From: a plasmid
Sequence record: NZ_CP067424.1
Direction: 5' to 3' (one strand)
Length of the DNA stretch: 64,000 bases
Positions 3,101 to 44,781 of this stretch are shown piece after piece. The notes below the pieces were generated by a model, which searched no databases, was not told the origin of the DNA, and saw nothing but the letters and a program-made list of their open reading frames with translations. Both the position numbers and the translations under genes were made by a program. How positions within the stretch are numbered: position 1 is the first letter of the stretch; every line of letters begins with the position of its first letter.

Positions 3101-3223
3101 GGCGAAGAACTCGGCTCGCTGGAAGTCGTCGAAGTCGGGCAGGCCGTACAGAGCGAGCCTCTCGGCCTCGGAAAGGACGGTCAGCCGCTTGCTGCCGTCG
3201 GCGCGCATCGGTCGGTCGGGCAC
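173..3223 (-). CDS. tnpA: Tn3-family DDE transposase TnpA
   Basis: 1016-aa ORF. N-terminal DUF4158-like region (…TTLQGIISEVLTAERRRL…) and overall length and architecture match Tn3 TnpA. Homologous to the two other TnpA genes in this window. The C-terminus abuts IRL. Confidence 0.9.
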   Translation of the reverse strand: MPDRPMRADGSKRLTVLSEAERLALYGLPDFDDFQRAEFFALSAAERALVDQRKGLAEQVWCLLQIGYFKAKQAFFGFSWPDVPSSDIAFLMERYFPGSALTPQPIRANEHYAQRREIAGLFGYRLWADTDRAAVVGRAGLLAKRDVAATFILTELLAFLATRRIVRPGYTTLQGIISEVLTAERRRLEHLVEDGLDEEARAALQGLLVREDTLSELAALKQDAKHFGYRMMAMERQKRTTLAPLHRVAKTLLPKLDISQQNVAYYASLAHYYTVYDLRRLKPGQTHLYLLCYAWQRFRQLTDNLVEAFGFHMGQMEGQTKEESEAAFVQAQAGRQQEGSRIGRVLLLYVDDTVDDATPFGAVRHRAFTILPREAMLGAGQRLCEKPVSQLELRWQAVDRTAARCRKHLRPLAMALEVSATTADNPWLAALRWMKGVFSRQQRLAQRPFGELPENTIPDRLRPHLLDVDDDGKATGLRGYRYEFWIYRQLRKRLATGELHLDDSVRHRRFGDELVASDRAAEALRDLDSPWLRQPVDATLDGLCADLHRLWLIFDRDLRQGKLKHLEYDPGRKTLSWRTPKVDKEEALQAAFYARLPARGIADIFRFVDERCRFLSALTPLQPRYAKRITDDDSLTAVILGQAMNHGNLGMAETSDIPYHVLEATHQQHLRLSTLKAANDRVSNFIAGLGIFPFYSFDPAVLYGSVDGQKFSVAVPTAKARHSRKYFGTGRGVVAYTLLANHVPLETELIGAHEHESHYVFDICYHNTSDIAPTTITGDMHSINRANFAILHWFGLKLAPRFTRRQAQLKHLYCGNPIEDYQDCLVQPAGRIDRALIVAEKASIDRIVATLGLKEMSQAILVRKLCALSPHDRTRKAVFEYDKLIRSLYTLDYLRDPQLQRDVHRSQNRIEAYHQLRAVLTQVSGGKQLIGRTDLAIAISNQCGRLVANVIIAYNSVLLSTLLERYRREDDRKALALLQKISPVAWQHIHLLGHYTFRGGKHAIDPEALLANVRLG

Positions 3224-5087: not shown

Positions 5088-5235
5088 ACGGCCATAGAAT
5101 CAGAACCGGCCGGGTAATGCCACCCTCATATCGACAGACCGATTCCTCGCGCTACACCGTCAATGGGAGGGAAGGTGAACGGGTACTCCGCCATGTCCCA
5201 TTAGCTTTTCTGGGCATGGCGGATCGGTGTATAGC

Positions 5236-5484
5236 TTATGGTGCTGTCTGCATCAGGAAAAGAGGGCGCAGTATTTCCCACTTTCTTCCGGTAGCCTTTT
5301 CAGGTATGGGACGAATACAATGTTCGTATACATCATATCCGTCACGACCTATGCCAACTTGGAGAATTGTGCCGTCACTGAATTCTCCTGCCCATACTAC
5401 ACCTTGAGGCAGCTTTTTATTTTGACGTATTTCATTTAATAAGTCGTCAAGTTTGGTATCAGAAAGCGTTGGAGATGGCGCCAC
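5236..5484 (-). CDS. Hypothetical protein (82 aa) in a low-GC segment
   Basis: ORF in the AT-rich 5100-5560 island, which contrasts with the roughly 67% GC surroundings. No recognisable motifs. Confidence 0.25.
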   Translation of the reverse strand: MAPSPTLSDTKLDDLLNEIRQNKKLPQGVVWAGEFSDGTILQVGIGRDGYDVYEHCIRPIPEKATGRKWEILRPLFLMQTAP

Positions 5485-9948: not shown

Positions 9949-9959
9949 GGTTCGCACAT

Positions 9960-10070
9960 CTCCGGACATTTGCGAGGGCCGGGCGGGATCAGGAAAACCA
10001 ACGGCTTGACCCTCGCAAAACATAGGCGCGAAAGTGCGTCTTTTTGCGATATGTTTTGCGAGGCTGCGGC
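9960..10070. promoter_or_regulatory. Probable res site / divergent promoters of Tn3-family element B
   Basis: Intergenic tnpA-tnpR region with repeated TTGCGAGG / CCTCGCAA half-sites (tttgcgagggc … ccctcgcaaaacata … tgttttgcgagg), as expected for resolvase subsites. Confidence 0.4.
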
Positions 10071-13597: not shown

Positions 13598-16049
13598 TCA
13601 GACTTCGACCGGCTCGGGCAAGTCGAAGGCGGGCATGGTGCGGTTGACGAAGTAGACCCCACTGGGAACGATATGCCGGCGCTGGAGCGGCCAGACATGG
13701 GCGAGATCCTGGTCGGCGATCGTCATGCCGCCGGTGCGCAGCTCGCTGACGATGCGCGCCATTTGCAAAGTGTTCCACAGCACCACCGCGTTAGACAGCA
13801 GGCCGAGGCAACTCGCCCGGTTCATCATCGCCTCGTAGTCGCTGGTGCGGAACTCGCCCTGATTGGCGAAGAACAGCCAGCGGGCCAGGGCGTGGCGGGA
13901 TTCACCGCGGTTGAGCTGGGCCTGGATGCGCCGGCGCAGCGGCGCGTCGTGGAGGTAGCGCAGAACGTTGCGCGTCTTGACCAGGCGGCCGAGCGTGGTC
14001 AGCGCCTTGGCCACACGATCGTTGGGACCGCCGGCGGTGAGACGCTGCAGCACGACATGCGCCGGCGCCGTGCGGGCCTTGAGCGAGGCCGCGACGCGGA
14101 CGAGTTGGTCCCATTGCTCGATCAGAAGGGTCGTCTCGCTGGTCCCTGCGAACAGCGCGGCGAGATCCTCGGGGATCGCGGCACCCTCGGGCCGCCAGAG
14201 CCGCTGGTCGCTCAGATCCTTGAGGCGCGGCATGAAATCGATGCCCAGGAGATGGCACAGGCCCCACAAGGGTTCGGTGAAGCCGTGGGTGTCGGTGGTG
14301 TGCTGGCGGGGATCGAGGCTGGTATCGTTCTCGAGCAGGCCGTCGAGGACGTAGGTCGCTTCCCGCGGGGCGCAGGAAATGAGCTGGGTGGCGAAGACGC
14401 CGATCCGGTCGCTGACGTGGGTGTAGACGGTGACGGCCTTGTCGTAATGGCCGAAGTAGCGGGGGTGGTAAGCGCCGATCAGGGTGCCCGGCGGGGCCCG
14501 GAAGCGCTGGCCATCCGAGGACGACAGCCGGCCGTCGCCCCAGACCGCGGCGAAATCAACCTGATGGAGATGCTCGACGATCCGGGCGCTGGCGGCCTTC
14601 AGGGTGGCGTCGCGCACCAGCCAGCGCGCGGTCTGCTGGAGATCGGCGGCGGTCAGGTCCTCGACGCTGTCGCCCATGGCGGTCAGGCCGAGGTTGGTGC
14701 CGTGGGCGATCAGGGTGGCGAGCAGGGCACGGTAGGTGTCCTGCGCGCGCGGCTCATAGCCGGCAAGCGGATGGAAGGCGCGGGAAAAGCCGCAGCGCTG
14801 GTCGACCTCGAGCAGAACATCCTCGATCCGGACCCGGGGCATCCGGCTTTCGATCTCGCGGCGCAGATGGCGGACCTCGGGCGACAGCGGCAAGGCATCG
14901 GGCCGGTGGAGACGCAACTGGCCCTGCTCGATGCCGGCGAAGTCGTTGGCCGCCCGCCCGGCGGCAAAGGCGCCGGCGGCGGTTTCGATGGCGCGCGCCA
15001 GATCGGCGAGGTGTTCGGCCGGCCGTTCGGGCAGACCGAGATCGGCGTAGGCGCCGGTTCGGGCGCTCGCCCACAGCCGCTCGTCGAGCACCAGCGACCA
15101 GAAGCCGGCATGGCGCCGGCTGTCGGGCAGATGGAGATCGCCCGAGCGCAGCGCGTCGCGGACCGCCAGGGCGAGCGCAGTCTCCCAGACCGAGCGGCGC
15201 AGCCGGCCGCGCTCGTCGCGCAGCACCGTTCGCCAGCCGGGCGGGACGAAGCCGGTCGGCGCGTCCTCCGGCAGGGTCTTGATCTCACCGCGGTCGAGCT
15301 GGCGAACCAAGTCGATCGCCCGCGGCAGGTCATCGTGACCGGTGTCGGAGGTGAATGGCAGCGACAGGAAGGCCGGCAGGGACTTGCGCAGATCCGGGTA
15401 GCGGGCGAGGACGGCGTCGACCACGCCGCGGCTGTCCTGGGTGGAAACCGCCTCGCAGGCGGCGACCGCGCCCCGCAGCCGCTCGGCCCCGAGGCGGCCG
15501 CGCAGGCCAGCCACGGATTCCTCAGGGTCGCCGGCGAGGACCGCCTTGCCGGTATCGACCAGCGTGAGCAGGCCGTCCTCGGCCGCGCGCCGCAGACGCC
15601 GGGCCTCGGCTTCGGCGGCATGGCGGGCGCGGCGCATCAGGCCGGTCATGTGATTGTCATGGGCCTGCACCAGGTCGTCGAGCAGCCCCTGGCGCCGGTC
15701 GAGCAGAAAGCAGACGAGCAGGCCGTGGCGCTTGTCGGGCGGAAAGCGCCGCAGGGCACGGCCATCGTAGCGCCGGCACAGCTGGGCGAGTTGCTGACGA
15801 ACCCGCTGGGGCACCTCGGCAAGATCAGGCAGATCGGCCAGCATGACCGTGATCTCGTCCAGCCGCTGACAGGCCTCACGGGTGAACCGCCCCATCGACG
15901 CTGCCGAGGGCGTGCGGTAGCGGCCGAGGGAGGCACGGCCCTCCGTACCGGCGTCGTCGGCCAGCTGACCGACCAGCCGGTCGAGGGCCGCGCGCAGGGA
16001 TGAGGGAAGGCGGGCGGCGAGGCGGTTGAACAGGCCGTTCAGGGCCTGG
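13598..16049 (-). pseudogene. tnpA: Tn3-family transposase TnpA of element C, distal (about 815 aa) part, separated from its 5' end by IS21
   Basis: The frame stays open upstream of the annotated Met up to the IS21 boundary (…QTDWGLFTRPIWGSFIRPLHQALNGLFNRLAARLPSSL…). Removing IS21 and one TSD copy rejoins it in frame to 18409..18892 (…VAAITRQ|ALNGLFNRL…), which matches the other TnpA genes. Confidence 0.8.
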
Positions 16050-24340: not shown

Positions 24341-24657
24341 CACATTCCGGCATGGACAAACGGAAGCCCACCTATGATCTGGCGTCATTTAAGGCATCGT
24401 TTAGCAGCGTCGAGAAGTTGAATGCAACTATTGTCGCTCTCCAAGGGGCTAGAAGCCTAGGAATTACGGTTACCGGTATGGTTTCCGTCATACAAACGAT
24501 GGAAAGAAAGCATTTCTACAAGTCTATGACTTCGAATAATGATCATACAGTCTGGCAGGACGTTTACCATGTGCCGCATGATGAGAATGTTATCTACATC
24601 AAGTTCATTGCGGATGTCGTGACAGAGTTTAGATTGCTGTCCTTCAAGGAGAAGTAG
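24331..24657 (+). CDS. mqsR: MqsR-family mRNA interferase toxin
   Basis: …FYKSMTSNNDHTVWQDVYHVPHDENVIYIKFIADVVTEFRLLSFKEK parallels E. coli MqsR (FYKSMTTYSDHTIWQDVY…VSFKEK). Confidence 0.75.
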   Translation: MKVPHSGMDKRKPTYDLASFKASFSSVEKLNATIVALQGARSLGITVTGMVSVIQTMERKHFYKSMTSNNDHTVWQDVYHVPHDENVIYIKFIADVVTEFRLLSFKEK

Positions 24658-25097
24658 TGATGGCTGATACGATGATCTGCCATGAGTGCGGCGGGCACAT
24701 GGCGCGGGCTTCAAAGCCTGTCGAATTTGAGTATAAGGGACATAAGGTTACCTTGGACCAGCCAGGATGGTACTGCTCTTCTTGCGAGGAGAGTGTCCTG
24801 ACGGGTGCCGACATGTTAGCTACGGAACCGGCGTTTTTGGAATTCAAGGCAAAGATTGATGGCTTGGCGCCTCCGAAGGAAGTTTCCCGCATTCGTAAAA
24901 AGCTTAAACTTTCTCAGCGCAAGGCTGGAGTAATCCTCGGAGGGGGTGTTCACGCATTCCAAAAATATGAAAGCGGGAAGGATCTGCCCACCAAGGCTAT
25001 GAGCAATCTGCTTCGCTTGCTTGATAGTCAGCCGACCTTGCTTGAGCAGCTCGTCGCGATCCAAGCACAGCAAGAAAGCGGGAAGCACACCGATTAG
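24657..25097 (+). CDS. mqsA: MqsA-family antitoxin (N-terminal zinc ribbon plus C-terminal XRE HTH)
   Basis: CHECGG…YCSSCEES zinc-binding pairs. RKKLKLSQRKAGVILGGGVHAFQKYESG matches the MqsA HTH (RKKLSLTQKEASEIFGGGVNAFSRYEKG). Start overlaps the mqsR stop. Confidence 0.75.
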   Translation: MMADTMICHECGGHMARASKPVEFEYKGHKVTLDQPGWYCSSCEESVLTGADMLATEPAFLEFKAKIDGLAPPKEVSRIRKKLKLSQRKAGVILGGGVHAFQKYESGKDLPTKAMSNLLRLLDSQPTLLEQLVAIQAQQESGKHTD

Positions 25098-26180
25098 CAA
25101 ACTGCTCGTGCTATGGCTGTTCTCTAACCTACTGACTTAGCTTCGTCTAAGGCAGAAACTATGGGAAAATCCCATAGTTAAAGATCCTTCGCCAGGGGGC
25201 ATCCCCGGTCCGATTTCATCGAACCAGGGGAAAGCAGGATGTCTCTTGGTGGTGGGCATCAATCCCCTTCCGTCCCATTCTCCGCGCTACGCTTGTGCGA
25301 ACGGGTCCCATCGAGAAGGGGATTGACGTACAACCGTGACGGGCTGCTTCGCCGTGCTCGATGGCCCGGCTCTCCTGGCTCAGGCAGCGGCTACCGGCGG
25401 GCGGTGGCTAGGTCTGCCGTCCTGTCCGGTGTACGGGCGCTCTGCCGCCTTAGCCCATAGATCGCCGACGTAGGCCCACAGCTCGGGAGCCATCCGGTCG
25501 CGCAGATGGACCAGAACGCCATGAGGGGCATTGGCTCCGGTGGCGAGCGAAATGCACTGACCATTGCGATATCGGAAGGTCCGGTTCTCTGCCGACCGGA
25601 AGTCCTGGTCGCCCAAGCGGCACATCTCATAGACATGGTCGATGAGGTCGAAGCGGTCGCCCGAGTGGGTGGTGATGATACGTGCCGGTCCTGTGTTTTA
25701 CAGTTTCACCTTGGAATATAGGGATGGGCGAGTCATCGACCTACGGGAAATTCACAGCCTGTCAGAGGGGCTCCTGCGGCTGACGGATCGGGTGATCAGG
25801 TAAGCCAGACCGCCGACGACTAAGCCGACTGGAACGACCGTTGCGATCATGCGGGGCAGGAATCGCTGGGTGATTTCAGGGTCTATAAAATACGCGACAA
25901 CGCAGGTCAGGATGCCGCCGACCAGATAGACGATGCCGGGCGGTTGGAAAAGTAGCGGTTATCATTCATTTGAGGGGCTTTCTTCCAAAGGGTTGAAGGG
26001 CGATTTGCGGGAAGAAAACTGAGGTTGGGGAGAGGGGGTATTGCAAGTTAAAAGCGCCTGTCCCCGGACGGCGCTGAACCCCCTCCCTTTCTGCGATTTT
26101 CGTGTCCCTAGCCGTAGCCTGTTGTCCCTGATATGGGGTATACTACGATTTTACGTTAGTCAGGGTCAAGGAGGCAGGTC

Positions 26181-26951
26181 ATGGCAGGGCGGGTGCCGCT
26201 GGCGAGGTCGAAAGACGCGCTGATCGAGCGATGGCTGAGGTTCGCGCCGAAGGCCGGCGGAGAGTCGGCAGGGCGGGTTTACCTGCCCGACCTTGGAAAA
26301 CCGAAGGCGGTGCATCGGGGTACGACACGGCTGGGCAGCGGCGAAGGGTCGTCGTACCGTCGCCGCGTGGTGGTGATCTCCTACCATTACCGCATGGCCG
26401 GTGCGGGATACTCTAAGTTGCACAGCCACATCCGGTATGTCGAGCGGCCCGGGGCCGGCGAACGGGCGGTGACGCCGTCGCTGATCGATCGAAACGGCGA
26501 CGGCGTCACGGGCCATTCGGCCGTCCAGGGGTGGCGGGACGACCGGCACCATTTCAGGCTCATCCTGGCGCCGAACGACGGCGCGCAGCTCGACATGGCG
26601 GCCTATACCCGCGAGTACATGGCCGAGCTGGAGCGCCGTCTGGGCACCCGGCTGGACTGGTTCGCGGGCATCCACGAGAAGCCGGACGCGACGCACGCCA
26701 TGAACCGGCACGCCCACGTCATCCTCCGGGGCATCGCCCAGGACGGAACCGACCTGGTGATGGACAGGGAATTTATTCGGTTCGAGATGCGCCGCATCGC
26801 CGAGGATCTGGCGACCCGGCACCTGGGTCCGATGAGCCAGCGGGAGATGGACCGGTATATGGAACGGCAGGCCCAACGGTTGCGAGACGGGGAACGGAAC
26901 TACCACATGGGCCGGCGCCCGATCCGGGGGGAGGATCGCGGCCGTGATTGA
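26181..26951 (+). CDS. Relaxase-like protein (DUF3363 / VirD2-like HUH domain), short form
   Basis: RRVVV…HSHIRYVERPG…HHFRLILAPNDGAQLD…LGTRLDWFAGIHEKPDATHAMNRHAHVILRG matches the N-terminal catalytic region of alphaproteobacterial DUF3363 relaxases (His triad). Only 256 aa; the usual long C-terminal region is absent. Its stop overlaps the T4CP start. Confidence 0.6.
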   Translation: MAGRVPLARSKDALIERWLRFAPKAGGESAGRVYLPDLGKPKAVHRGTTRLGSGEGSSYRRRVVVISYHYRMAGAGYSKLHSHIRYVERPGAGERAVTPSLIDRNGDGVTGHSAVQGWRDDRHHFRLILAPNDGAQLDMAAYTREYMAELERRLGTRLDWFAGIHEKPDATHAMNRHAHVILRGIAQDGTDLVMDREFIRFEMRRIAEDLATRHLGPMSQREMDRYMERQAQRLRDGERNYHMGRRPIRGEDRGRD

Positions 26952-28725
26952 CCTCGGGCAGATCCTGACCAACCCGGAACCGTTCGTGCAGGCCACGCGG
27001 ACGTGGATCGAGACCAACGCCGTGCTGCTGGCCGGCTGCGCGGCCGGCGCGTTGACGGTCGCGGGGGTGGCCGGGGTCGGGGCCGGCTACGTCGTGGACC
27101 GGCTGCGCGATGCGGCCGAGGACCGGCAGCGTTACGGCGGCAAGAGGGAGGCGAAGCGCGCCGGGCTGCTGCGCAACCCGAAGCTGGAGTACTCCGGCAT
27201 CCCCCTGGGTCGGATCGGGCGCAAGCACCTGTGCTGGGTAGACCAGGAGCCGGTGCTGGTGACGGGCGGCACCCGGTCGGGCAAGGGTGTCGGCGTGATC
27301 CGCCCGGCCTGCCTGACCTATGGCGGGCCGATGGTGATGTATGACGGCGGCAAGGGAGAGCTGTTCAGGACGACGTCGGGGTGGCGCAAGCGGTTCAGCC
27401 ACGTCCTGAACCTCGACCTGACCAACCCGGCCGGCGTCCACTTCAACTTCCTGGAGGAGATCGACCCGGCCAACCCGGTGGCCGGGGCCGACAACCTCGC
27501 CAAGTCGGTGCCGCGACCGGCCAGGTCGGACGAGCACTTCGAGGCCGGCGCCGACCGTCTGATGGGGGCGGTGATCCTGCACGTGCTGCACGGGGAGCCC
27601 GACGAGCGCAAGAACATGGCCGAGGTGGTCCGGCTGATCTCCCAGGGAGACGTCGGGATGCGCCGCATAGCCGAAACGAAGGCGCATCCGGTGGCGGTCG
27701 ACCGGATCAACGCCCTGTTCGGCGGCGACCCGTTCGGCGAGAAGTCCGGGGACGGCATGAAGTACCGCGGCATGTTCTACAACGCCGCCCTGGTGCGCCT
27801 GTCGCCCTTCGAGGACCCGATCGTCGCCCGGGTGACAGGCCGGTCGGACTTCAGGATGCGGGACCTGTTTCGGCTGAGCCCGAAGCGCAGGCCGGTGTCG
27901 CTCTACCTGACGACGCCGGCCAGCGATGACGATCGCCTGCGACCGGTGACCAGCATGTTCCTGTCCATGCTGATGGGCGCGATCATGAGGGAGCAACCGG
28001 CGCTGGAAGGGGAGCCGATGTCGCTGCTGGTGGTCGACGAGTTCGCCAGCCTGCGCCTGGAGATCCTGCAGACCGCGATCACCAAGATCGTCGGGTGCGG
28101 CGCCACCATGCTGCTGGGCGCCCAGTCGCTCAACGCCCTGCGTCAGGCGCCCTACGGGCCGTACAACCAGTTCCGCGACAACATCCGCTGCCACGTCGTC
28201 TACGCCGCCAACGACGGCATGACCCAGCAGGAAATCTCCCAGTCCTGCGGCACCGTCACGGAACGGCGCAGGTCGACCAGCCGGAGTCGCTCTTCCGGCA
28301 CCTGGGCGCGGTCGCATACCGAGAGCGTCAGCGAGGTCGAGCAGCCGGTCATCAACCCCGGCGGCGTCCGCCAGCTGAGGGATCGGTTCGAGCTGGTGCT
28401 TATCACCGGTCAGCCCGTGATCCGGGCGCGCAAAATCGTGGACCACAAGGACCGCATCCTGCGCAAGCGGCTGGATCTGCCCCAGGCTGCCCTGCGCGGC
28501 TCCGACGGCGCCTATCCTGATCTGCCGCACCCGCACCGCCCGAGCGCCTGGGCGGGCGTGCCGGTTCACCCGCAAACCCCGGAAGCCATGGCCTCCGGCG
28601 CCGGGGCCGTCGATGACGGCGATTTGCCGGAACCGCCGGCGAATGACGACGCCACCGCTCCCCCTGCCAGGCCGAAGCCGAGGCGCAAGCGAAAGCTGAT
28701 CACAGCCCCTGGAGGTGAAGAATGA
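26944..28725 (+). CDS. traG: Type IV coupling protein (VirD4/TraG family)
   Basis: 593 aa. Two N-terminal TM helices. Walker A VTGGTRSGKGVG and Walker B LLVVDEF. GTG start overlapping the relaxase stop. Confidence 0.9.
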   Translation: MIDLGQILTNPEPFVQATRTWIETNAVLLAGCAAGALTVAGVAGVGAGYVVDRLRDAAEDRQRYGGKREAKRAGLLRNPKLEYSGIPLGRIGRKHLCWVDQEPVLVTGGTRSGKGVGVIRPACLTYGGPMVMYDGGKGELFRTTSGWRKRFSHVLNLDLTNPAGVHFNFLEEIDPANPVAGADNLAKSVPRPARSDEHFEAGADRLMGAVILHVLHGEPDERKNMAEVVRLISQGDVGMRRIAETKAHPVAVDRINALFGGDPFGEKSGDGMKYRGMFYNAALVRLSPFEDPIVARVTGRSDFRMRDLFRLSPKRRPVSLYLTTPASDDDRLRPVTSMFLSMLMGAIMREQPALEGEPMSLLVVDEFASLRLEILQTAITKIVGCGATMLLGAQSLNALRQAPYGPYNQFRDNIRCHVVYAANDGMTQQEISQSCGTVTERRRSTSRSRSSGTWARSHTESVSEVEQPVINPGGVRQLRDRFELVLITGQPVIRARKIVDHKDRILRKRLDLPQAALRGSDGAYPDLPHPHRPSAWAGVPVHPQTPEAMASGAGAVDDGDLPEPPANDDATAPPARPKPRRKRKLITAPGGEE

Positions 28726-29048
28726 CGAAGGTCGAATTCAAGCTCTACCTGGAGCCGAACCTGGCATCCCAGATAACCGAGACGACGGCGCAGTTCCGCG
28801 GCGCCGGCCGGAAGGTCTCCCGCAACGAGGTATTGGAGCAGCTGATCGAGGACGGTTTCCGCCTGTGGCGCCGGGAGGCGCAGGTGGTCAACCGTGTGGA
28901 GGCCGGCATCGCCAAGCTGCTCGACCAGTCGGCCCGCCAGGACCGGCTCCTGCGCTCGATCCTGCTGACCCTTGCCGAGGGCGACCAGGTAGAATACCGC
29001 AGGGTGATCGAAACCATTGAACGCGAGGATGCCGGCAATGCCGCTTGA
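28722..29048 (+). CDS. Small conjugation-associated protein (108 aa), function unknown
   Basis: ATGA overlap with the T4CP stop. Sits between the coupling protein and trbB in the same operon. Confidence 0.4.
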   Translation: MTKVEFKLYLEPNLASQITETTAQFRGAGRKVSRNEVLEQLIEDGFRLWRREAQVVNRVEAGIAKLLDQSARQDRLLRSILLTLAEGDQVEYRRVIETIEREDAGNAA

Positions 29049-30000
29049 GCTGCAGGGGGAGAACCTGACCGCGAACCGGACCGAGGGCATGAGGCGCCTG
29101 CTGGACGACCTGGAGGACGCCTACGGCCCGATCATCCGGACGGCCAAGCAGACGCCGGGCTGCACCGACATCATGGTGAACGAGGACGGCGCGATCTGGC
29201 TGACAGTCGGCGGGCAGGACAGGCCGACCGGCGAGCACCTGACCGAACACGCCGCGCGCCGGATCGTCACCTTGGTCTCGGACATCGACAATCACCCGAT
29301 CGAGAAGGCGGCGCTGTCGGCCAACCTGCCGACCGGCGAGCGGTTCGCGGCCCTGCTGCCGCCCACGGTGCGCCGGATCACCTTCTCGATCCGCCTGCCG
29401 CCGGGGCGGATCTTCACGGTGGACGATTATGTCGCCGCCGGCGCCATGACGGAGGCGCATGCCGACGTGCTGCGCGCGGGCGTGGCCGACCGCAAGAACA
29501 TCCTGATCGTCGGCGGCACCGGAGCGGGCAAGACGACGCTGGGCAACGCCCTGCTGGCGGAGGCGCCGTTCCGGTCCAGCCGGGTCTTCATCATCCAGGA
29601 CCAGGACGAACTGCGGGTGAGTGGTCCCAACGTGGTCCGCGCCTTCACCGGCGCGATGAATGCCCGCGAGCTGGTCCGCGAGGCCTTGCGCCACAAGCCC
29701 GACCGCATCGTGATCGGCGAAATCCGGGACGGGGAGACGGCACTGGAATGGATTGGTGCCAGTAACACCGGCCACCCCGGCGGGCTTTCCACGGTCCACG
29801 CCAACTCGGCGGCGCATGGCCTGTCGCGCATCTCGCGACTGATCGGCCACGTAGCCGCCAACGTGCCGCACGGCGACATCATCGAGGCGGTCGACATGGT
29901 GGCGTTCATCCGGCGGGAGCGGGACGGATCACGGCGCCTGGCCGAGATCGTAAAGCCGACCGGGCATGACGGAGAGAGATACCGGACAGACACCGTCTAG
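29017..30000 (+). CDS. trbB: Conjugal transfer ATPase TrbB (VirB11 family)
   Basis: Walker A GGTGAGKTT. VirB11 motifs DRIVIGEIRD and His box GHPGGLSTVHAN. Start ambiguous (ATG at 29017, 29029 or 29080). Confidence 0.85.
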   Translation: MNARMPAMPLELQGENLTANRTEGMRRLLDDLEDAYGPIIRTAKQTPGCTDIMVNEDGAIWLTVGGQDRPTGEHLTEHAARRIVTLVSDIDNHPIEKAALSANLPTGERFAALLPPTVRRITFSIRLPPGRIFTVDDYVAAGAMTEAHADVLRAGVADRKNILIVGGTGAGKTTLGNALLAEAPFRSSRVFIIQDQDELRVSGPNVVRAFTGAMNARELVREALRHKPDRIVIGEIRDGETALEWIGASNTGHPGGLSTVHANSAAHGLSRISRLIGHVAANVPHGDIIEAVDMVAFIRRERDGSRRLAEIVKPTGHDGERYRTDTV

Positions 30001-30020
30001 GGAGGACACTATAAAACAGG

Positions 30021-30452
30021 TTATGGCCCCGTGGGAAGGCCCAGGCGCAGCAGCGACGCAACCAAGCCGCTTTCGCTGATATCCAGCGCAGCCTGGGACG
30101 GGGTGAGCCAACGCCGTTCACGCTCGTCCCGTTCCGGCCAGTCCTCCAGCTCCTGCGCGACCTCCAGAAGGTAGACGGTGACATGACACTCGACCGACTG
30201 CCTCGCCGTCAGGCGCTTGTCATAGCGGTAGGTGCAGTAAGGAGCAGCCGCGACCCTGCCCCGGACCCCGGCTTCCTCAAACGCCTCCCGGGCGGCCATG
30301 TCATGCGGCTCTGTGCCCTTCTCGGCCCATCCCTTGGGAATGATCCAGCGCCGCGTCTCGCGCGACGTGATCAGGAGCACTTCGAGCCGGTCCCGGACAG
30401 AGCGGTATGGCAGGGCGGCGAACTGGGATCGGGGTTTACGCTGCTTGCTCAT
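30021..30452 (-). CDS. NUDIX hydrolase, antisense, inserted between trbB and trbC
   Basis: Nudix box GWAEKGTEPHDMAAREAFEEAGVRG (GX5EX7REUXEEXGU). 143 aa. Convergent with trbB. Confidence 0.8.
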   Translation of the reverse strand: MSKQRKPRSQFAALPYRSVRDRLEVLLITSRETRRWIIPKGWAEKGTEPHDMAAREAFEEAGVRGRVAAAPYCTYRYDKRLTARQSVECHVTVYLLEVAQELEDWPERDERERRWLTPSQAALDISESGLVASLLRLGLPTGP

Positions 30453-30676
30453 GTCTCGCTCACGGCCGGCGTAGCCACGGCGGAAAGTTCCGTACCGGCA
30501 GAGGCTTTCTGTTTCTGGCAGATTTATCGATTACAACAGGTTACGCGGGGCGCACTCCCCATACCATCCCTTCCGCATTCGTCGTGCCTCATGGCATTTT
30601 TGGCTGAGTTGTTCGCTATCGTACCGACACTCACAGCATAACCGTCCTTCTATCTTGCAACCAGCAGGAAGGAGGC

Positions 30677-30846
30677 AATGATGAACCGCAAAATAGCCAC
30701 TGATAACAAGAATTACGAGAGTAAAAACCTTTTAAGGTCGTTGGAATTTGCTCAATATTTCATTGAGAACTCCCGATGTGCAGATGATGAGGCGGAAGAA
30801 CTTAGGGCTAAGCTAGAATTAAACGCTCAACATCTTCGACGCTAAT
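30677..30846 (+). CDS. Low-GC micro-ORF (56 aa), followed by a 29-aa ORF (30846-30935) with TAATG stop/start overlap
   Basis: RBS GGAAGGAGG 6 nt before the ATG. About 38% GC segment 30650-30845, against 67% backbone. Below the ORF-track cutoff, found by reading the sequence. Confidence 0.3.
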
Positions 30847-31110
30847 GACCACCTTTGACCGATCGGACCTGGAGAAAGCCTTTCGCGAGTGCTACGACAC
30901 CGTTCATCGGCATTTCGAACAATTACCCGAATAGTGAGCTGCGCATTAGTGGATGTCATTCAAGATTTTCCATCTCTGGTACGGCAGCGTACCATCAGAA
31001 AACGTTCCTTGTGCTCTCTTCCATCAGGACTGACTAGCTTCAGGAATTTTCCTCCCTGATCTGATGGCCATCCAAGCTCCCGCGGATGGCCACTTTTTCG
31101 TTGGAAGGCT

Positions 31111-31317
31111 ATGGCACAGGATCGCGTCTGTCTGCTTGATCACCTGGACGGCCTGATCTATCTGGCCGATCAGGCATGGCAGCTTCCACCGGGCAGAAGT
31201 TTGTATCTCGTGCATACCTTCCAGCACCTGGGGCAGGCATATCAGGATGCCGCCCTGGCGCAGCGGGAAGAGCGGCCCACACGGTTGCGTATCTCGTATA
31301 ATTACATTCTCAAGTAG
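31111..31317 (+). CDS. Small paralog P1 (68 aa) of a four-gene tandem family
   Basis: LLDHLDGLIYLADQAWQLPPGRSLYLVHTF… is homologous to P4 (LLDQVNGVISLADVAWRLPPGRSASLARKF…). Followed by a conserved intergenic motif TAGTATATTT…GTTCCGCGATCC. Confidence 0.4.
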   Translation: MAQDRVCLLDHLDGLIYLADQAWQLPPGRSLYLVHTFQHLGQAYQDAALAQREERPTRLRISYNYILK

Positions 31318-31356
31318 TATATTTTTCCATATTGTTTGTTCCGCGATCCTGCCGCC

Positions 31357-31612
31357 GGTGGCCTGTTGGGTCGGGACGGAACAGGACCATGACAGTGTGC
31401 ATGTCGGCCTGGACCGGTTGATTGAACTGGCGCGCCAGGCTTCGCCAGACAAGCGCATGCGGCTGATCCGGGCATTCCGGCAGGTCGCCGAGGTACTCCA
31501 GGAGGTCATTCGGGTTCGGGAAGAAATGCACGGCGCCGGGAATGAACCCAGCCGGCGGTACCCTGTTAGGGACCTATGGAAATCGATTACGCAGCCTCGC
31601 GCGCCCGCCTGA
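31357..31612 (+). CDS. Small paralog P2 (about 85 aa, GTG start)
   Basis: …VGLDRLIELARQASPDKRMRLIRAFRQVAEVLQEV… aligns with P1, P3 and P4 (LD.L..LA.QA..P…L…F…V.E pattern). Confidence 0.3.
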
Positions 31613-31851
31613 AACGGCTAACGGAACTGCTGGAAATAATCCGGGGAGCTCCGCACCAGGATCAGGCTCGGCTGTCACAGACCCTCATGCTGGTCTGCCA
31701 GGCGCTTCAGACTGTTGCCCGGGTACGTTTGCAGATCGGCGATCCCGGACAGGTGAGGCAGGCCGTCGAGCTTGAGGCGCTGTGCTGGAAGTTCGAGAGG
31801 ACGGCCCTGCGGTACGAAACGCGCTCGAAATTCAGAGGTGATCAACTGTAG
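31576..31851 (+). CDS. Small paralog P3 (91 aa), overlaps the P2 3' end in another frame
   Basis: MEIDYAASRARLKRLTELLEIIRGAPHQDQARLSQTLMLVCQALQTV… resembles P2. 37-nt overlap suggests translational coupling. Confidence 0.35.
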   Translation: MEIDYAASRARLKRLTELLEIIRGAPHQDQARLSQTLMLVCQALQTVARVRLQIGDPGQVRQAVELEALCWKFERTALRYETRSKFRGDQL

Positions 31852-31870
31852 CGATCTTCCCATAGCACTA

Positions 31871-32125
31871 GCCATGAGCAGGCTTGACCCGATCCACCGG
31901 TCGGTTGTTGCATGGGGCATGGAGCAGCATGATCCTACCCTGCTCGACCAGGTGAACGGGGTTATTTCCCTGGCGGACGTGGCGTGGCGCCTACCGCCGG
32001 GGCGTTCCGCTTCCCTGGCCCGGAAATTCCGGCTTATCGGCTTGGTCTTTGAAGCCTCTGCGGCTGTCCAGAAGCGCGATATGCTTAGAGAGCTGCAAAT
32101 CACATACGACGACATCCGTCAGTAG
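31871..32125 (+). CDS. Small paralog P4 (84 aa)
   Basis: Homologous to P1. The same conserved 3' flank (TAGCATATTTACTATATCGTTGGTTCCGCGATCCGGCCG) follows it. Confidence 0.4.
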   Translation, partial: AMSRLDPIHRSVVAWGMEQHDPTLLDQVNGVISLADVAWRLPPGRSASLARKFRLIGLVFEASAAVQKRDMLRELQITYDDIRQ

Positions 32126-32331
32126 CATATTTACTATATCGTTGGTTCCGCGATCCGGCCGTCGCCGGATCAGCGTGTATTTCCAGCGGGCTCGCGCCTC
32201 GCGCGAGGTTGTAGGCGTCGCTGAAGGCCGGTTCCGGCCCTCTTGACACAAATTCTGGTGCTGCCAGCGGTTGGAAGGCAGGGATGCAGACTGGCTTAGC
32301 GATGATCCTGTCCGTTCGATGGATGGTCGCT

Positions 32332-33645
32332 CTAACAGGCTGCGGAAAAAGGGCTGTGCACGGGCGGGCGGTCGTGATTCTCTTCGGTGGTGTAGACTGC
32401 GGCCGGCGAGGGGACGATGCGGGGATTGGACGAACGCAGCGAGGGTCTGTTCAGCTACGTGAGCTGTGAAGCGCGGGTTCCGGCGAGCCATCCGTTGCGG
32501 CCGATCCGGGCCATCGTGGACGAGGCGCTGGAGGTGATGTCGCCGGCCTTCGAGGGGCTGTACTCCAGGATTGGGCGACCATCGATCCCGCCGGAGAAGC
32601 TGCTGCGGGCGCTGCTGCTGCAGGCCTTCTACTCGGTGCGCTCGGAGCGTCAGCTGATGGAACAGCTCGATTACAACCTGCTGTTCCGCTGGTTCGTCGG
32701 CCTGTCGATGGACGCGCCGGTGTGGGACGTGACGGTGTTCACCAAGAACCGTGAACGGCTGCTGGCCGGCGATGTGGCGGCCAAGTTCCTGGCTAGCGTG
32801 CTGGATCAGCCGCGGGTCAAAACGCTGCTGTCGGACGAGCATTTCTCGGTGGACGGCACGCTGATTGAAGCGTGGGCCGCGGTGAAGAGCTTCCGGCCCA
32901 AGGACGGCAGCGGCGAGCCGCCGGGGCCGGGACGCAACGGCGAACGCGACTTCCATGGCGAGAAGCGCTCCAACGAGACCCACGCCTCGACTACCGATCC
33001 CGAGGCGCGGCTGTACCGCAAGGGCAACGGGCAGCCGGCGAAGCTGGCCTTCATGGGTCATGCGCTGATGGAGAACCGCCACGCCCTGGTGGTGGATGTC
33101 CGGCTGACGGCGGCCACCGGCTTGGCCGAGCGCGAGGCGGCGGTGGCCATGGTCGAGGCCATTCCGGGCCGCCACCGCATCACGGTCGGGGCCGACAAGG
33201 CCTACGACACCAGGGATTTCGTGGCGAACATGCGCGAGTTGGGCGCGGCCCCGCACGTCGCCCAGAACACGAACAACCGCCGCTCGGCGATCGACGGCCG
33301 GACCACCCGCCACCCCGGCTACGCCGTCAGCCAGCGGATCCGCAAGCGGATCGAAGAGGTGTTCGGCTGGATCAAGGGAGCCGGCTTGCGCAAAACGCGT
33401 CATCGCGGCACGGCCCGTGTCGGTTGGATGTTCACGCTGACCGCCGCGGCCTACAACCTGATCCGCCTGCCCAAGCTGCTGGCTGCGGCATAATCACGTC
33501 CGGAGCCCGCCTCAACGGCGGCTCCGCGAGCCCTGGATCGAGGCAAACCGCTCCATCTCGACCAAAACGGGCGTCCAAAGCGCCCTCTTCAAGCCTCGGC
33601 GGAGGCAACGGCGCTGCGAAGGCCCATTTTTCCGCGTCCTGCTAA
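32332..33645. mobile_element. IS5-family insertion sequence with 4-bp TSD CTAA (32332-35 and 33642-45)
   Basis: Imperfect terminal IRs CAGGCTGCGGAAAAAGGGCTGTGC (32336-) and CAGGACGCGGAAAAATGGGCCTTCGC (inverted, ending 33641). CTAA direct repeats match the IS5 target preference. Confidence 0.75.
32417..33493 (+). CDS. IS5-family DDE transposase
   Basis: 358 aa with the N-terminal …HPLRPIRAIVDEALEVMSPAFEGLYSRIGRPSIPPEKLLRALLLQ and C-terminal …RIEEVFGWIK… blocks typical of IS5/IS1031-group transposases. Confidence 0.85.
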   Translation: MRGLDERSEGLFSYVSCEARVPASHPLRPIRAIVDEALEVMSPAFEGLYSRIGRPSIPPEKLLRALLLQAFYSVRSERQLMEQLDYNLLFRWFVGLSMDAPVWDVTVFTKNRERLLAGDVAAKFLASVLDQPRVKTLLSDEHFSVDGTLIEAWAAVKSFRPKDGSGEPPGPGRNGERDFHGEKRSNETHASTTDPEARLYRKGNGQPAKLAFMGHALMENRHALVVDVRLTAATGLAEREAAVAMVEAIPGRHRITVGADKAYDTRDFVANMRELGAAPHVAQNTNNRRSAIDGRTTRHPGYAVSQRIRKRIEEVFGWIKGAGLRKTRHRGTARVGWMFTLTAAAYNLIRLPKLLAAA

Positions 33646-33677
33646 AGGCATTGCCTGACGGGGTCTTTGGTGTACTA

Positions 33678-33700
33678 TTGACTACGAATTATTTGTAGTA
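33678..33700 (+). promoter_or_regulatory. Putative trb promoter/operator: TTGACTAC-N9-GTAGTA (palindromic, overlapping a -35-like TTGACT)
   Basis: TACTATTGACTACGAATTATTTGTAGTATTAC 27 nt upstream of trbC. A near-identical element is at 40843-40865 upstream of trbG. Confidence 0.45.
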
Positions 33701-33726
33701 TTACGCAGCCTTGAGGGAGTCATCCT

Positions 33727-34044
33727 ATGCGCAAGACCTTGGGCGATGCAGCATCTTTCGCGCTGGCCACGCTGATCGTCACCGCGGCCGACCCGGCGCT
33801 GGCGCAGTTCAACGGCGGCGGTGACGTGCCGTTCCAGCAGGGTATGAGCACGGTGCTGAACTGGGCCTTCGTCGCCGGCATCGCGGTGGCGCTGTTCTCG
33901 TTCATCCTGGCCTGCGTCTTCCTGTTCATGCGGAACCTGATCGGTTTCGCCGGCGGTGTCCTGGGCGTCCTGATCGGCGGTGCGCTGATGGCGAATGCCC
34001 CGACCATCGTCCAGGGGCTGACCAACCTGTCGAGCCCGTTCTGA
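33727..34044 (+). CDS. trbC: T4SS pilin TrbC (VirB2 family)
   Basis: 105 aa. Long signal peptide, then two hydrophobic helices (…WAFVAGIAVALFSFILACVFLF…GGVLGVLIGGALMA…). Confidence 0.8.
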   Translation: MRKTLGDAASFALATLIVTAADPALAQFNGGGDVPFQQGMSTVLNWAFVAGIAVALFSFILACVFLFMRNLIGFAGGVLGVLIGGALMANAPTIVQGLTNLSSPF

Positions 34045-40842: not shown

Positions 40843-40865
40843 TTGACTACTATATTTTTGTAGTC
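40843..40865 (+). promoter_or_regulatory. Second copy of the TTGACTAC-N9-GTAGTC palindromic operator/promoter, upstream of trbG
   Basis: TATACTCTTGACTACTATATTTTTGTAGTCATG. Same spacing and flanks as the copy at 33678. Confidence 0.45.
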
Positions 40866-40891
40866 ATGCCGCTTCGGGGGATGTGCTGACC

Positions 40892-44163: not shown

Positions 44164-44781
44164 TCAAGGCTTGATCCAAAGGATCGGGGAGGCATTCTTC
44201 AGTAAAACATCATCCAGGGGAAACGGTCTGCCTCCTGAAGGAACCGATTTGTCACAGCCTTCGACCCCTATAAACTTTAGATTGTATAATCCTGGCTCTG
44301 TTCCTCTGTCGACATAGGCCAGATAGGCCTCTCCATTCGGCAGGGTGACTATGGACAGCCGCCCAATCGATCCGGCATCAACGATGTTTTCTTTTCTAAA
44401 ATAGAGAACTGCTCTATGAAGCGGAGATAATGTGTTAAGAACTCTTATTCCCACGGTCCCTTCCGGAATGTTGGATGGAACTATAAAGGTGTCCTGTGTT
44501 GACACTTCATCTTCGACCAACCGGTTGTTGTGCTCGATATGGCCAACGATGTTTATTCTTTTTGATCTGATCCCTTCCAGTACCAGGCCGGCATTACTCA
44601 GGACATCCTCGATCGGTGCACCGATGAACTCCGCGATCCGAGCGGCCTCATCCAACTGCATCCGGCGTTTGCCTTTGAACATCAGCGTGATCGCGCTCGG
44701 ATCGAGGCCCAGATAGCGCGCGAGCAGGCGCTGGCTCAATCGTTTAAGGGCAAGTTGCTGTTGAAACCACTCCGCGTTCAT
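44164..44781 (-). CDS. cI/LexA-like repressor (XRE HTH plus S24 peptidase domain), SetR-like
   Basis: N-terminal HTH LSQRLLARYLGLDPSAITLMFKGKRRMQLDEAARIAEF. C-terminal S24-like segment (…GRLSIVTLPNGEAYLAYVDRG…). 205 aa. Lower GC than the backbone. Confidence 0.7.
   Translation of the reverse strand: MNAEWFQQQLALKRLSQRLLARYLGLDPSAITLMFKGKRRMQLDEAARIAEFIGAPIEDVLSNAGLVLEGIRSKRINIVGHIEHNNRLVEDEVSTQDTFIVPSNIPEGTVGIRVLNTLSPLHRAVLYFRKENIVDAGSIGRLSIVTLPNGEAYLAYVDRGTEPGLYNLKFIGVEGCDKSVPSGGRPFPLDDVLLKNASPILWIKP

Follow-up and report, generated by a model that had tools for sequence, protein, structure and literature searches.

Stepwise accumulation of passenger DNA as the probable origin of a 3.65-kb insertion between trbB and trbC on a Skermanella plasmid

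The window analysed here, 64,000 nucleotides of a plasmid (NZ_CP067424.1), contains a P-type (Trb) T4SS cluster in which an additional block of DNA separates trbB from trbC (Table 1). Sequence comparison gives a gap of 3,726 nt between the two genes here and of 76 nt in pSR-5, pSR-2 and pTT6-1. The genes are contiguous in a fourth Skermanella plasmid (CP067425) as well, and relative to these four the extra DNA amounts to 3,650 bases. An earlier note on this DNA had stated that trbB is normally followed directly by trbC and that the block is an accessory insertion. Both statements hold: the genes adjoin in 4/4 Skermanella plasmids and in annotated P-type plasmids, and the close relatives lack the block. 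The survey comprises these plasmids because, in genome contigs, a TrbB-alignment search reached no more than three distant ATPases (34-38% identity).

The surrounding transfer genes are well preserved. TrbB is equal in length to, and 89, 78 and 78% identical with, the TrbB of three Skermanella plasmids. TrbD and then TrbE follow trbC, and TrbB, C and D combined share 87% identity with pSR-5. Intact reading frames are present for TrbB, C, D, E, L, F, G and I. The relaxase-like gene encodes a 256-aa N-terminal domain only, a short form that is the norm in relatives. Tn3, IS66, IS21-like and integrase genes crowd the plasmid.

Table 1. Features between traG and trbC, with positions in the window.
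Feature	Position	Strand	Basis or remark
traG (TraG)	26944-28725		gene order
gene for a 108-aa protein	28722-29048		between traG and trbB
trbB (T4SS ATPase), full length	29038..30000	+	TIGR02782, 7e-76; left border of the island
Nudix hydrolase, 143 aa, DIPP/ApnA-hydrolase type	30021..30452	-	PF00293, 9e-11
divergent intergenic region, Nudix gene/55-aa ORF	30453..30677	.	GC down to 56%; matches none of the compared loci
orphan 55-aa ORF	30678..30845	+	40% GC; AGGAGG ribosome-binding site
29-aa ORF, 3'-terminal remnant of a Crp/Fnr-family regulator gene	30845..30934	+	homology to pSR-3
hairpin TGGTACG-GCAG-CGTACCA, downstream of the crp remnant	30977..30994	+	conserved in L015-17 and pSR-3
9-bp hairpin (TGGCCATCC/GGATGGCCA), then CTTTTTCG	31065..31100	+	ends ~10 nt before the gene A ribosome-binding site
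gene A, 68 aa, LPPGRS family, predicted two helices	31111..31317	+	homologues 45-93% identical, all ~68 aa
gene B, 71 aa	31397..31612	+	P0126 identical, P0145 76% identical
gene C, 91 aa, B-like	31576..31851	+	37-nt overlap with the end of B
gene D, 68 aa	31919..32125	+	A paralogue, 40% identity; family alignment
non-coding repeat with three short hairpins	32130..32320	.	unannotated intergenic DNA of pSM-1 and pTT6-1 matches at 78-85%
IS5-family element, ISAzs10-like	32332..33645 with duplication (element 32336-33641)	+	transposase gene 32417-33493; NF033581, 2e-80
TGCCTGACGGG, start of the ancestral trbB-trbC spacer	33652..33662	+	pSR-5 has the same sequence in its trbB stop-codon region
operator-like palindrome TGACTAC-N9-GTAGTAT	33679..33701	+	25 nt upstream of trbC
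trbC (pilin)	33727..34044	+	weak PF04956 match, synteny with relatives; right border of the island

The insertion lies after the trbB stop codon and before the point where the ancestral spacer starts, just upstream of the palindrome. It leaves that spacer's palindrome and the ribosome-binding site of trbC undisturbed. In the window the palindrome (TGACTAC-N9-GTAGTCA) occurs at 26140, 33679 and 40844, the last copy being perfect. Each copy heads a T4SS gene block, the motif preceding the rlx and trbG blocks as well as the trbC block, and it is kept at both equivalent sites in relatives (L001-L003). A sigma-70 scan found no consensus promoter at the palindrome upstream of trbC. The block had been described as lying inside the trb operon. 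It does lie between trbB and trbC, but upstream of the operator-like palindrome that heads the trbC block, which makes the operon interior doubtful. Because the palindrome also precedes the rlx and trbG blocks, the insertion is probably located between transcription units, not within an operon. The palindrome would be a putative repressor site over a promoter. With its own regulated start, the trbC block would escape polar effects of the insertion and the T4SS would stay functional. The repeated palindrome probably splits this poorly known T4SS cluster into co-regulated units, which would explain the tolerance of insertions at trbB/trbC.

The first gene of the block encodes a Nudix hydrolase. 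As the earlier note had observed, it is antisense to the transfer genes: it is convergent with trbB, the stop codons lying 20 nt apart. The PF00293 match (42.3 bits, against a cut-off of 21.1) places the protein in the Nudix superfamily. In the Nudix box (G-x5-E-x7-R-E-U-x-E-E-x-G-U) the REAFEEAG segment is present and the first E is replaced by T, at a position that varies across the family; E55, E58 and E59 are invariant in the family. GC3 is 0.79, compared with ~0.90 in the backbone.

The earlier note had suggested comparing the enzyme with ADPR-, NAD- or cADPR-cleaving clades, a type proposed to serve in anti-Thoeris or NAD-related counter-defence. Sequence and predicted fold place it with the DIPP/ApnA hydrolases. 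Among solved structures, the best sequence match is DIPP3-alpha (9e-12) and the top 19 are all DIPP/Ddp1; the only ADPR-type matches are T. thermophilus ADPRase entries, at E 0.004-0.01 compared with 9e-12 for DIPP. The AlphaFold2 model (pLDDT 93.6) has a Nudix fold. Its top 21 Foldseek matches are all DIPP1/2/3 or yeast Ddp1, followed by Ap4A hydrolases, and the top 50 structural matches include no ADPR, NAD or cADPR-type enzyme. On this sequence and modelling evidence, the protein is a member of the DIPP/ApnA-hydrolase clade. Bacteria are not known to make inositol pyrophosphates, so its substrate must differ from that of DIPP. The enzyme would hydrolyse polyphosphate-type substrates (Ap5A/Ap6A-like dinucleotides, polyphosphate or similar), in house-cleaning or phosphate metabolism.

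Genomic context bears on this assignment in two ways. Homologues 68-71% identical are found in ordinary chromosomal neighbourhoods. One of them (68%) follows a PhoU-like gene and a PHO4 phosphate-transporter gene, its start lying 2 nt beyond the latter, and this PhoU-PHO4-Nudix arrangement offers a supporting hint of polyphosphate-type substrates. Together, the DIPP/ApnA assignment and the chromosomal homologues correspond fairly well to an unrelated, housekeeping-type Nudix clade, an outcome that the earlier note itself had named as contradicting its proposal. The closest relative on a long contig (76% identical) lies within an integrase/Bro-N/resolvase island, and the protein matches a phage Nudix family at 3e-20. 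By their genomic settings, some members of the clade do travel as mobile-element cargo, which counts against reading the block as passenger DNA. A literature search returned no report relevant to Nudix genes within trb operons or to Skermanella plasmids.

The adjacent segment had been reported as 38% GC, with overlapping ORFs of 56 and 29 aa. GC is indeed low, but at ~40-44% (40% in the first ORF, 42.7% over 30640-30850), and the TAATG overlap is present at 30843-30847, but the first ORF has 55 aa (54 from the second ATG). Its status as a real gene is uncertain. Database searches recover only the ORF itself, on contigs that carry this island, its GC1/2/3 is 0.48/0.30/0.41, and Pfam, PADLOC and PHROG give no family match. 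The 29-aa ORF is a gene fragment. Homology to pSR-3, at 80% identity, starts exactly at 30845 and takes in the final 29 codons of a gene annotated as Crp/Fnr (235 aa); the full-length cNMP-binding plus HTH_Crp_2 architecture of that family is absent, those codons being all that is left. A conserved micro-gene or leader peptide, considered for its dN/dS of 0.2, was rejected because the ORF is the C-terminus of the Crp/Fnr gene. The same remnant is found in L015/L016. The hairpin and T-run before gene A have an equivalent in pSR-3 and, with altered arms, in L015. There is only weak support for calling the DNA hairpin-rich: it has 7 terminator-like sites where shuffled sequences give 3.6 +/- 2.0, and its fold z-score is -1.5. 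Rfam found no RNA family over 29900-33800, and a metagenome scan with a 16-nt hairpin motif gave, among the matches listed, one real locus, already known, the rest being chance.

The four small genes that follow are, as proposed, true paralogues of one superfamily, but distant ones that form two pairs. Identity within the A/D pair is 40%, B and C match by BLASTP at 1e-4, and only a profile comparison connects one pair with the other (hhalign 94%, E 1e-7). Gene B has an alternative GTG start at 31358, giving 84 aa, and its GC1/2/3 is 0.74/0.46/0.72. Gene D most likely starts at 31919 (68 aa), and the longer ORF from 31874 is probably unused. Values of dN/dS are 0.17-0.21 for A and 0.18-0.19 for D, and by this measure (~0.2) both are under purifying selection. 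The family is rare, with 36 clusters among 1.84 billion representatives, and is carried by Tn3-type transposons, IS-rich DNA and a phage-like element. A scan of viral contigs for the A/D family found a single contig, from the same sample as L043. In L028 a C-like 91-aa gene is followed by a D-like gene, and a B-like pseudogene sought downstream of D here was not found.

Structure prediction gives protein A helices at 8-22 and 27-52 at low confidence (pLDDT 65), and Foldseek found no significant match of this model in the PDB. The two-helix shape suggested NepR-type anti-sigma factors. This candidate was dropped, since the A/D family profile matched no solved-structure sequence at E up to 10, and NepR structures are presumably present in the PDB. 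A type II toxin-antitoxin pair was also rejected: Pfam, NCBIfam, PHROG and PADLOC give no match, and the neighbours of A/D homologues vary between loci, with a GNAT gene following D-type genes only in L040-42. A-D would be real small two-helix proteins carried as cargo. The best guess from gene neighbourhoods is that they are small protein-binding regulators, because homologues adjoin Crp/Fnr regulators, HWE/HisKA_2 kinases and response regulators. Clearly under selection and travelling on mobile elements, the family is worth keeping in view.

The right-hand part of the block consists of a 190-nt copy, whose first 35 nt also follow gene A, of a repeat that other Skermanella plasmids carry in intergenic DNA, and of the single IS5 copy that had been noted. 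This element has the DDE transposase, terminal inverted repeats and short target duplication at a YTAR-type site of the IS5 family. Its ends were set by comparing four copies, it is 98.6% identical to a copy on pSM-1, and the window holds no second copy. The 4-bp CTAA target duplication occupies 32332-32335 and 33642-33645, and the empty site (...GTCGCTCTAAAGGCATTGCC...) is present in metagenome contig L023. A role for the IS5 as carrier of the cargo is rejected by this clean duplication and natural empty site; the sequences indicate that the element is the latest insertion, made by simple transposition.

Taken in aggregate, the data suggest, with moderate confidence, that the block is a stepwise pile-up of unrelated passenger DNA in an apparently insertion-tolerant short spacer between the rlx-traG-trbB and trbC-to-trbF blocks of the Skermanella P-type T4SS cluster. 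GC content is stepped along the block (66%, 56%, 43%, 50%, 60% and 67%, compared with 67-68% in the backbone). Its pieces differ in origin. The Nudix gene belongs to a family that Azospirillaceae chromosomes and chromids commonly carry. It is followed by ~400 nt of low-GC orphan DNA and by part of a locus, intact on other Skermanella plasmids, that combines a Crp/Fnr gene, hairpins and small gene A. The three further paralogues B, C and D, the dispersed 190-nt intergenic repeat and, as the last arrival, the IS5 element complete the block. The segment from the crp remnant through the hairpins to A matches pSR-3 and pSM-3 at 80% and Tn3-transposon cargo at 71-73%. In the variant contig L023, the A-D cassette is joined to trbC, a different IS lies left of A, and the A gene is recombinant. 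Two points are counted against the passenger reading. Several independent sequencing runs gave contigs that carry the island with 100% identity; it is hence stably kept, which is compatible also with a selected function. Small proteins that have diversified in tandem and are restricted to mobile elements in some cases turn out to be anti-defence factors. The locus is nonetheless cautionary, in that a seemingly purpose-built island by transfer genes proves to combine an enzyme of housekeeping type with a gene fragment, a dispersed repeat and an IS.

One alternative would be that the A-D array is selected cargo, its products acting as two-helix adaptors or inhibitors that modulate host Crp/Fnr or HWE/HisKA_2 two-component signalling, with the Nudix gene, orphan DNA and IS as hitch-hikers. 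This is unlikely. In its favour, a Crp/Fnr gene precedes A on pSR-3 and pSM-3, as a Crp/Fnr remnant does here and in L015; homologues of A/D are immediate neighbours of GAF-HWE kinases, response regulators or a PAS-GerE regulator (L015-19, L028, L040, L043); GAF-HisKA_2 and PAS-HisKA_2 kinases are encoded on the same plasmid; and the low dN/dS points the same way. However, HWE/HisKA_2-type kinases are common cargo in these bacteria, the pSR-3 copy of A is a pseudogene, the profile and the low-confidence fold model lack structural matches, and the 36 family clusters, longer members included, hold no informative domain fusions. A broader version is more doubtful still. It takes A-D as a rare, undescribed two-helix family (~68-91 aa), confined to mobile elements of Azospirillaceae-like bacteria and under purifying selection, whose members would be protein-binding inhibitors either of host defence at plasmid entry or of Crp/Fnr and HWE-kinase signalling, with the trbB/trbC gap serving as a functional slot for cargo, reached by read-through from the transfer genes.

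The earlier note had viewed the block as a plausible anti-defence or establishment module. In a coherent module centred on the Nudix enzyme, that enzyme would degrade an immune nucleotide signal while the small proteins inhibit defence, all co-expressed with the transfer genes. That the small proteins are restricted to mobile elements, under purifying selection and arrayed as tandem paralogues would suit such a module, as would the identity of the island in several samples, the Nudix relative in an integrative element and the phage Nudix match. The module is nevertheless very unlikely. The enzyme groups with DIPP/ApnA hydrolases, has homologues in ordinary metabolic neighbourhoods and is encoded antisense to the trb genes; the block combines pieces of separate derivation, a gene fragment and a dispersed repeat among them; and A/D homologues adjoin kinases, regulators and transposon genes, not known anti-defence clusters. 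PADLOC, a library of defence rather than anti-defence genes, gave no match at E up to 1 for the Nudix protein, either micro-ORF or A, B, C and D. Pfam and PADLOC place no known anti-defence family (ardA, klcA, psiB, ssb-type) and no defence-related match in the island, and no report of a stand-alone DIPP-type Nudix with an anti-defence function came up in full-text literature searches. An anti-defence role of A-D is likewise unsupported, with a small probability left for these small proteins. Equally improbable is a decaying, non-functional transfer system, with trbC-trbI separated from their promoter by the convergent Nudix gene and the IS5. An insertion of 3.65 kb, IS included, between genes adjacent in all relatives, two relatives typed non-mobilizable and the short relaxase-like gene would fit, but the T4SS frames and the full spacer are retained and relatives share the short relaxase.

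The Nudix protein resembles DIPP (NUDT3,4,10,11; yeast Ddp1) and ApnA hydrolases, its best matches in sequence (9e-12 to 1e-8) and fold (Foldseek 3.5e-11, TM 0.72-0.81), in its invariant metal-binding E-x2-EE motif, in a T-S-R motif that aligns with S-S-R of DIPP and in its single domain of ~140 aa. It differs in an identity of only ~28-30% and in the first Glu of G-x5-E, which is Thr or Val in the alphaproteobacterial family. The IS5 is an ordinary member of the ISAzs10 group (DUF772 + DDE_Tnp_1 transposase, terminal inverted repeats of ~18 bp, CTAA duplication), 88-99% identical to Skermanella and Azospirillum copies and without notable difference.

Anti-defence gene clusters reportedly occur in plasmid leading regions. 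The island shares with them a grouping of small genes of no assigned function on a conjugative element, but it is not beside a recognised oriT-proximal leading region, its gene orientations are mixed and its content is mosaic, with a pseudogene fragment. Its position inside the T4SS cluster, downstream of the relaxase-like gene and traG, would not be where a leading region is normally expected. The cluster itself resembles P-type (Trb) systems in its traG, its small ribbon-helix-helix-like gene, its trbBCDE...LFGI order and its family matches, an order that we take to be the ICEMlSymR7A/Tn4371-like arrangement. It departs from them in a TrbB only ~45% identical to canonical TrbB, the short (256 aa) relaxase-like gene, the palindrome repeated at three block heads and the 3.65-kb insertion, specific to this plasmid lineage. 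Conjugative plasmids, IncP-1 among them, have hot spots of accessory load between their backbone operons. Although trbB/trbC is not a classical IncP-1 site, and the unit boundary here is drawn from the repeated palindrome, the likeness is that transposon- or IS-borne cargo collects at a transcription-unit boundary without disrupting the units.

The trbB and trbC genes of this P-type T4SS cluster are separated by 3,726 nt, of which 3,650 nt (the island) are extra. In the Skermanella plasmids pSR-5, pSR-2 and pTT6-1, a 76-nt spacer separates the trbB stop codon from trbC; the two genes are likewise contiguous in a fourth, more distant Skermanella plasmid and in annotated P-type plasmids, which bears out the earlier note's statement that they normally adjoin. 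Every item that it listed in the island is present, with some details corrected. The left edge of the island falls directly after the trbB stop codon and the right edge just before 11 nt (TGCCTGACGGG, 33652-33662) that recur in the stop region of pSR-5 trbB, so that the whole ancestral spacer is retained. This 11-nt copy may be left over from a target duplication or from recombination. The window's own trbB end, ACCGTCTAGGGAGG, has diverged from the pSR-5-like copy at the right edge (29985-30015 versus 33648-33665).

Across the island, the GC content changes stepwise: 66% in the Nudix gene, 56%, 43% in orphan DNA, 50%, 60% in the small genes and 67% in the IS, with 67-68% in the backbone and ~67% in the window. 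Without its IS, the island is a mosaic. The IS5 element, its ends set by comparison with three other copies in differing flanks, occupies 32336-33641; its 18-bp inverted repeats are imperfect, and a duplicated CTAA flanks it on either side. The predicted empty site, ...GTCGCTCTAAAGGCATTGCCTGACGGGG..., is uninterrupted in metagenome contig L023. IS5 thus entered a pre-existing island by simple transposition, as its last arrival, and the same two observations rule it out as carrier of the cargo. In L023, the same cassette of small genes (A-D) is joined to trbC, with a different IS to the left of A and a recombinant A gene, indicating that the content of the gap turns over.

The 55-aa ORF of the island has a strong ribosome-binding site, a composition unlike host coding DNA and, among 5.8 billion proteins, no homologue besides itself. 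From 30845 to ~31300, the window and plasmid pSR-3 share 80% identity; in pSR-3, the 90 nt of the 29-aa ORF are the 3' end (final 29 codons) of a gene annotated as a 235-aa Crp/Fnr regulator, and pSM-3 has the same layout. The 29-aa ORF is therefore rejected as a micro-gene, and the TAATG overlap is the joint of orphan DNA with a truncated gene. The order crp, hairpins, A, which recurs in metagenome Tn3-transposon cargo (L015-L017, there split by another IS), is ancestral. A hairpin with a T-run stands ~10 nt upstream of the gene A ribosome-binding site in three lineages: the window, pSR-3 (locus L166, ~5225-5260) and L015 (~7946-7990), where the arm sequences differ. A terminator-like structure at so short a distance from a start codon suggests that A is controlled by read-through or attenuation. 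Upstream lie two copies of the heptamer CCATCAG (30992, 31021), which can pair with the hairpin's 5' foot. The 190 nt after D are 78-85% identical to unannotated intergenic DNA of pSM-1 and pTT6-1. This stretch is a dispersed repeat, with intergenic copies on at least three Skermanella plasmids, and is perhaps a small mobile or REP-like element. A second copy of its first 35 nt follows gene A (31323-31357).

Features of the window and positions of the dispersed repeat
Feature	Position	Remark
Tn3-family transposase genes	173-3223, 6952-10023, 13598-15895	three within 16 kb
Palindrome (T/A)GACTAC-N9-GTAGTC(A/T)	26140-26162	coding strand; 18 nt before rlx-like gene
RlxS-like relaxase N-domain	26181-26951	
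TraG	26944-28725	
108-aa protein	28722-29048	
TrbB	29038-30000	
Conserved hairpin	30977-30994	downstream of crp remnant
Hairpin + T-run	31065-31100	ahead of gene A
~190-nt repeat	32130-32320; pSM-1 63522-63708; pTT6-1 287391-287579	non-coding, hairpin-containing
Palindrome	33679-33701	coding strand; spacer before trbC
TrbC	33727-34044	TrbD, TrbE next
647-aa protein, TrbL, VirB8-like, CagX/VirB9-like, TrbI		downstream of TrbE
Palindrome, perfect	40844-40866	coding strand; before CagX-like gene

The retained spacer contains the palindrome TGACTAC-N9-GTAGTAT, one of three matches in the window (0.77 expected by chance at ≤3 mismatches). All three are intergenic, each heading a T4SS gene block, and the palindrome is kept at both equivalent positions in three related plasmids (L001 1482, 5338; L002 1536, 5334; L003 1515, 5313). 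The palindrome would represent a repressor site on internal promoters, and the T4SS cluster at least three co-regulated units; if so, the island lies between units and not inside an operon. No consensus promoter emerged at the palindrome in a simple promoter scan; the palindrome overlaps a TTGACT hexamer at two sites. Candidate repressors are the 108-aa protein and an HTH protein (44164-44781).

Plasmids of Skermanella rosea and Skermanella sp. TT6 are the nearest annotated DNA. Mobile genes in the window comprise three Tn3-family transposases, IS66, an IS21/Mu-like transposase and an integrase; GAF/PAS-HisKA_2 kinase and chemoreceptor genes also occur. One Tn3-family transposase gene is without the N-terminal DUF4158 domain, and transposon DNA makes up about one third of the plasmid. 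An MqsR/MqsA toxin-antitoxin pair (~24352-25097, from L020 401-1146) precedes the relaxase-like gene by ~1 kb. The latter, ahead of traG, encodes only 256 aa, aligning with the RlxS relaxase model (654 aa) over positions 66-240 (1.7e-34), and may specify a minimal relaxase or relaxase accessory protein. Related plasmids encode comparably short relaxase-like proteins (213-251 aa) and are typed non-mobilizable.

The earlier note saw in the island a plausible Nudix-centred anti-defence or establishment module, an idea that needs an ADPR- or NAD-type enzyme. Among sequences of solved structures, the top matches of the Nudix protein are diphosphoinositol-polyphosphate phosphohydrolases (human DIPP3-alpha, DIPP2 and DIPP1, and yeast Ddp1; 9e-12 to 1e-8), whereas ADP-ribose pyrophosphatase reaches only 0.004-0.01. 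For an AlphaFold2 model built with 38 homologues (pLDDT 93.6), Foldseek against the PDB ranks only DIPP and Ddp1 structures in the first 21 places and Ap4A hydrolases next, with no ADPR or NAD enzyme in the top 50. By sequence and predicted fold, the clade is of polyphosphate/ApnA type, not ADPR/NAD type. The family is large (>5,000 database matches, many named from Azospirillaceae), and its E-x2-EE glutamates are invariant. Homologues of 68-71% identity have ordinary neighbourhoods: one at 68% (Azospirillum sp. ST 5-10 contigs L034/L035) begins 2 nt after a PHO4-type phosphate-transporter gene, itself preceded by a PhoU-like gene, which hints that this bacterial DIPP-like family is tied to phosphate or polyphosphate metabolism; another adjoins DUF350 and aconitase genes, and another a GGDEF gene. 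More distant members occur on Ti plasmids, within an opine-catabolism-like operon, and on a Methylobacterium plasmid, beside a CYTH gene. Among long contigs, the nearest relative (76%) sits within an integrase/Bro-N/resolvase island, so mobile elements do capture this gene; the window's flanks recur at none of the examined homologue loci. In full-text literature searches, Nudix domains in counter-defence were tied only to NAD metabolism and reconstitution, none being a stand-alone DIPP-type enzyme.

Nothing ties the island's parts together: they differ in origin, one being a fragment and one a repeat, and the Nudix gene is transcribed against the trb genes. Together with the enzyme's clade, this speaks against the proposed module. 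Most likely, cargo accreted passively at a permissive boundary. The Nudix enzyme would then serve in house-cleaning or in a phosphate-related role, and A-D would be passengers, possibly with a regulatory function.

The small genes were correctly described as four paralogues, the link between the pairs being distant: A and D encode 68-aa proteins that are 40% identical, B matches C (91 aa) by BLASTP at 1e-4, and profile comparison joins the pairs (hhalign 94%, E 1e-7). A and D are real genes, as dN/dS against homologues elsewhere is 0.17-0.27. Since A and D are under selection and contigs from several sequencing runs share the island at 100% identity, there is room for a selected role of the small proteins, anti-defence included, which we consider improbable, with a small but appreciable chance; passive accretion is preferred. 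This rare family numbers 36 clusters at E up to 0.001 in a set of 1.84 billion representatives. The clusters show no informative domain fusions, and the four proteins match nothing significantly in Pfam, NCBIfam, PHROG or PADLOC. Protein A is predicted, with modest confidence, to fold as a two-helix hairpin, for which no structural match was found. Homologues lie in IS-rich DNA (in one case beside a response regulator), beside a CHASE-GAF-HWE kinase in locus L028, in a phage-like element that also carries HK97 capsid and HigB genes, 3' of Crp/Fnr genes of Skermanella plasmids (as a pseudogene on pSR-3), and in Tn3-family transposons, adjoining GAF-HWE kinases or a GNAT gene. In one such transposon (metagenome contigs L040-L042), a D-type 68-aa gene is followed within 70-136 nt by a GNAT acetyltransferase gene, adjoining a resolvase gene. 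This layout recalls the GNAT-type toxin-antitoxin pairs of Tn3 transposons.
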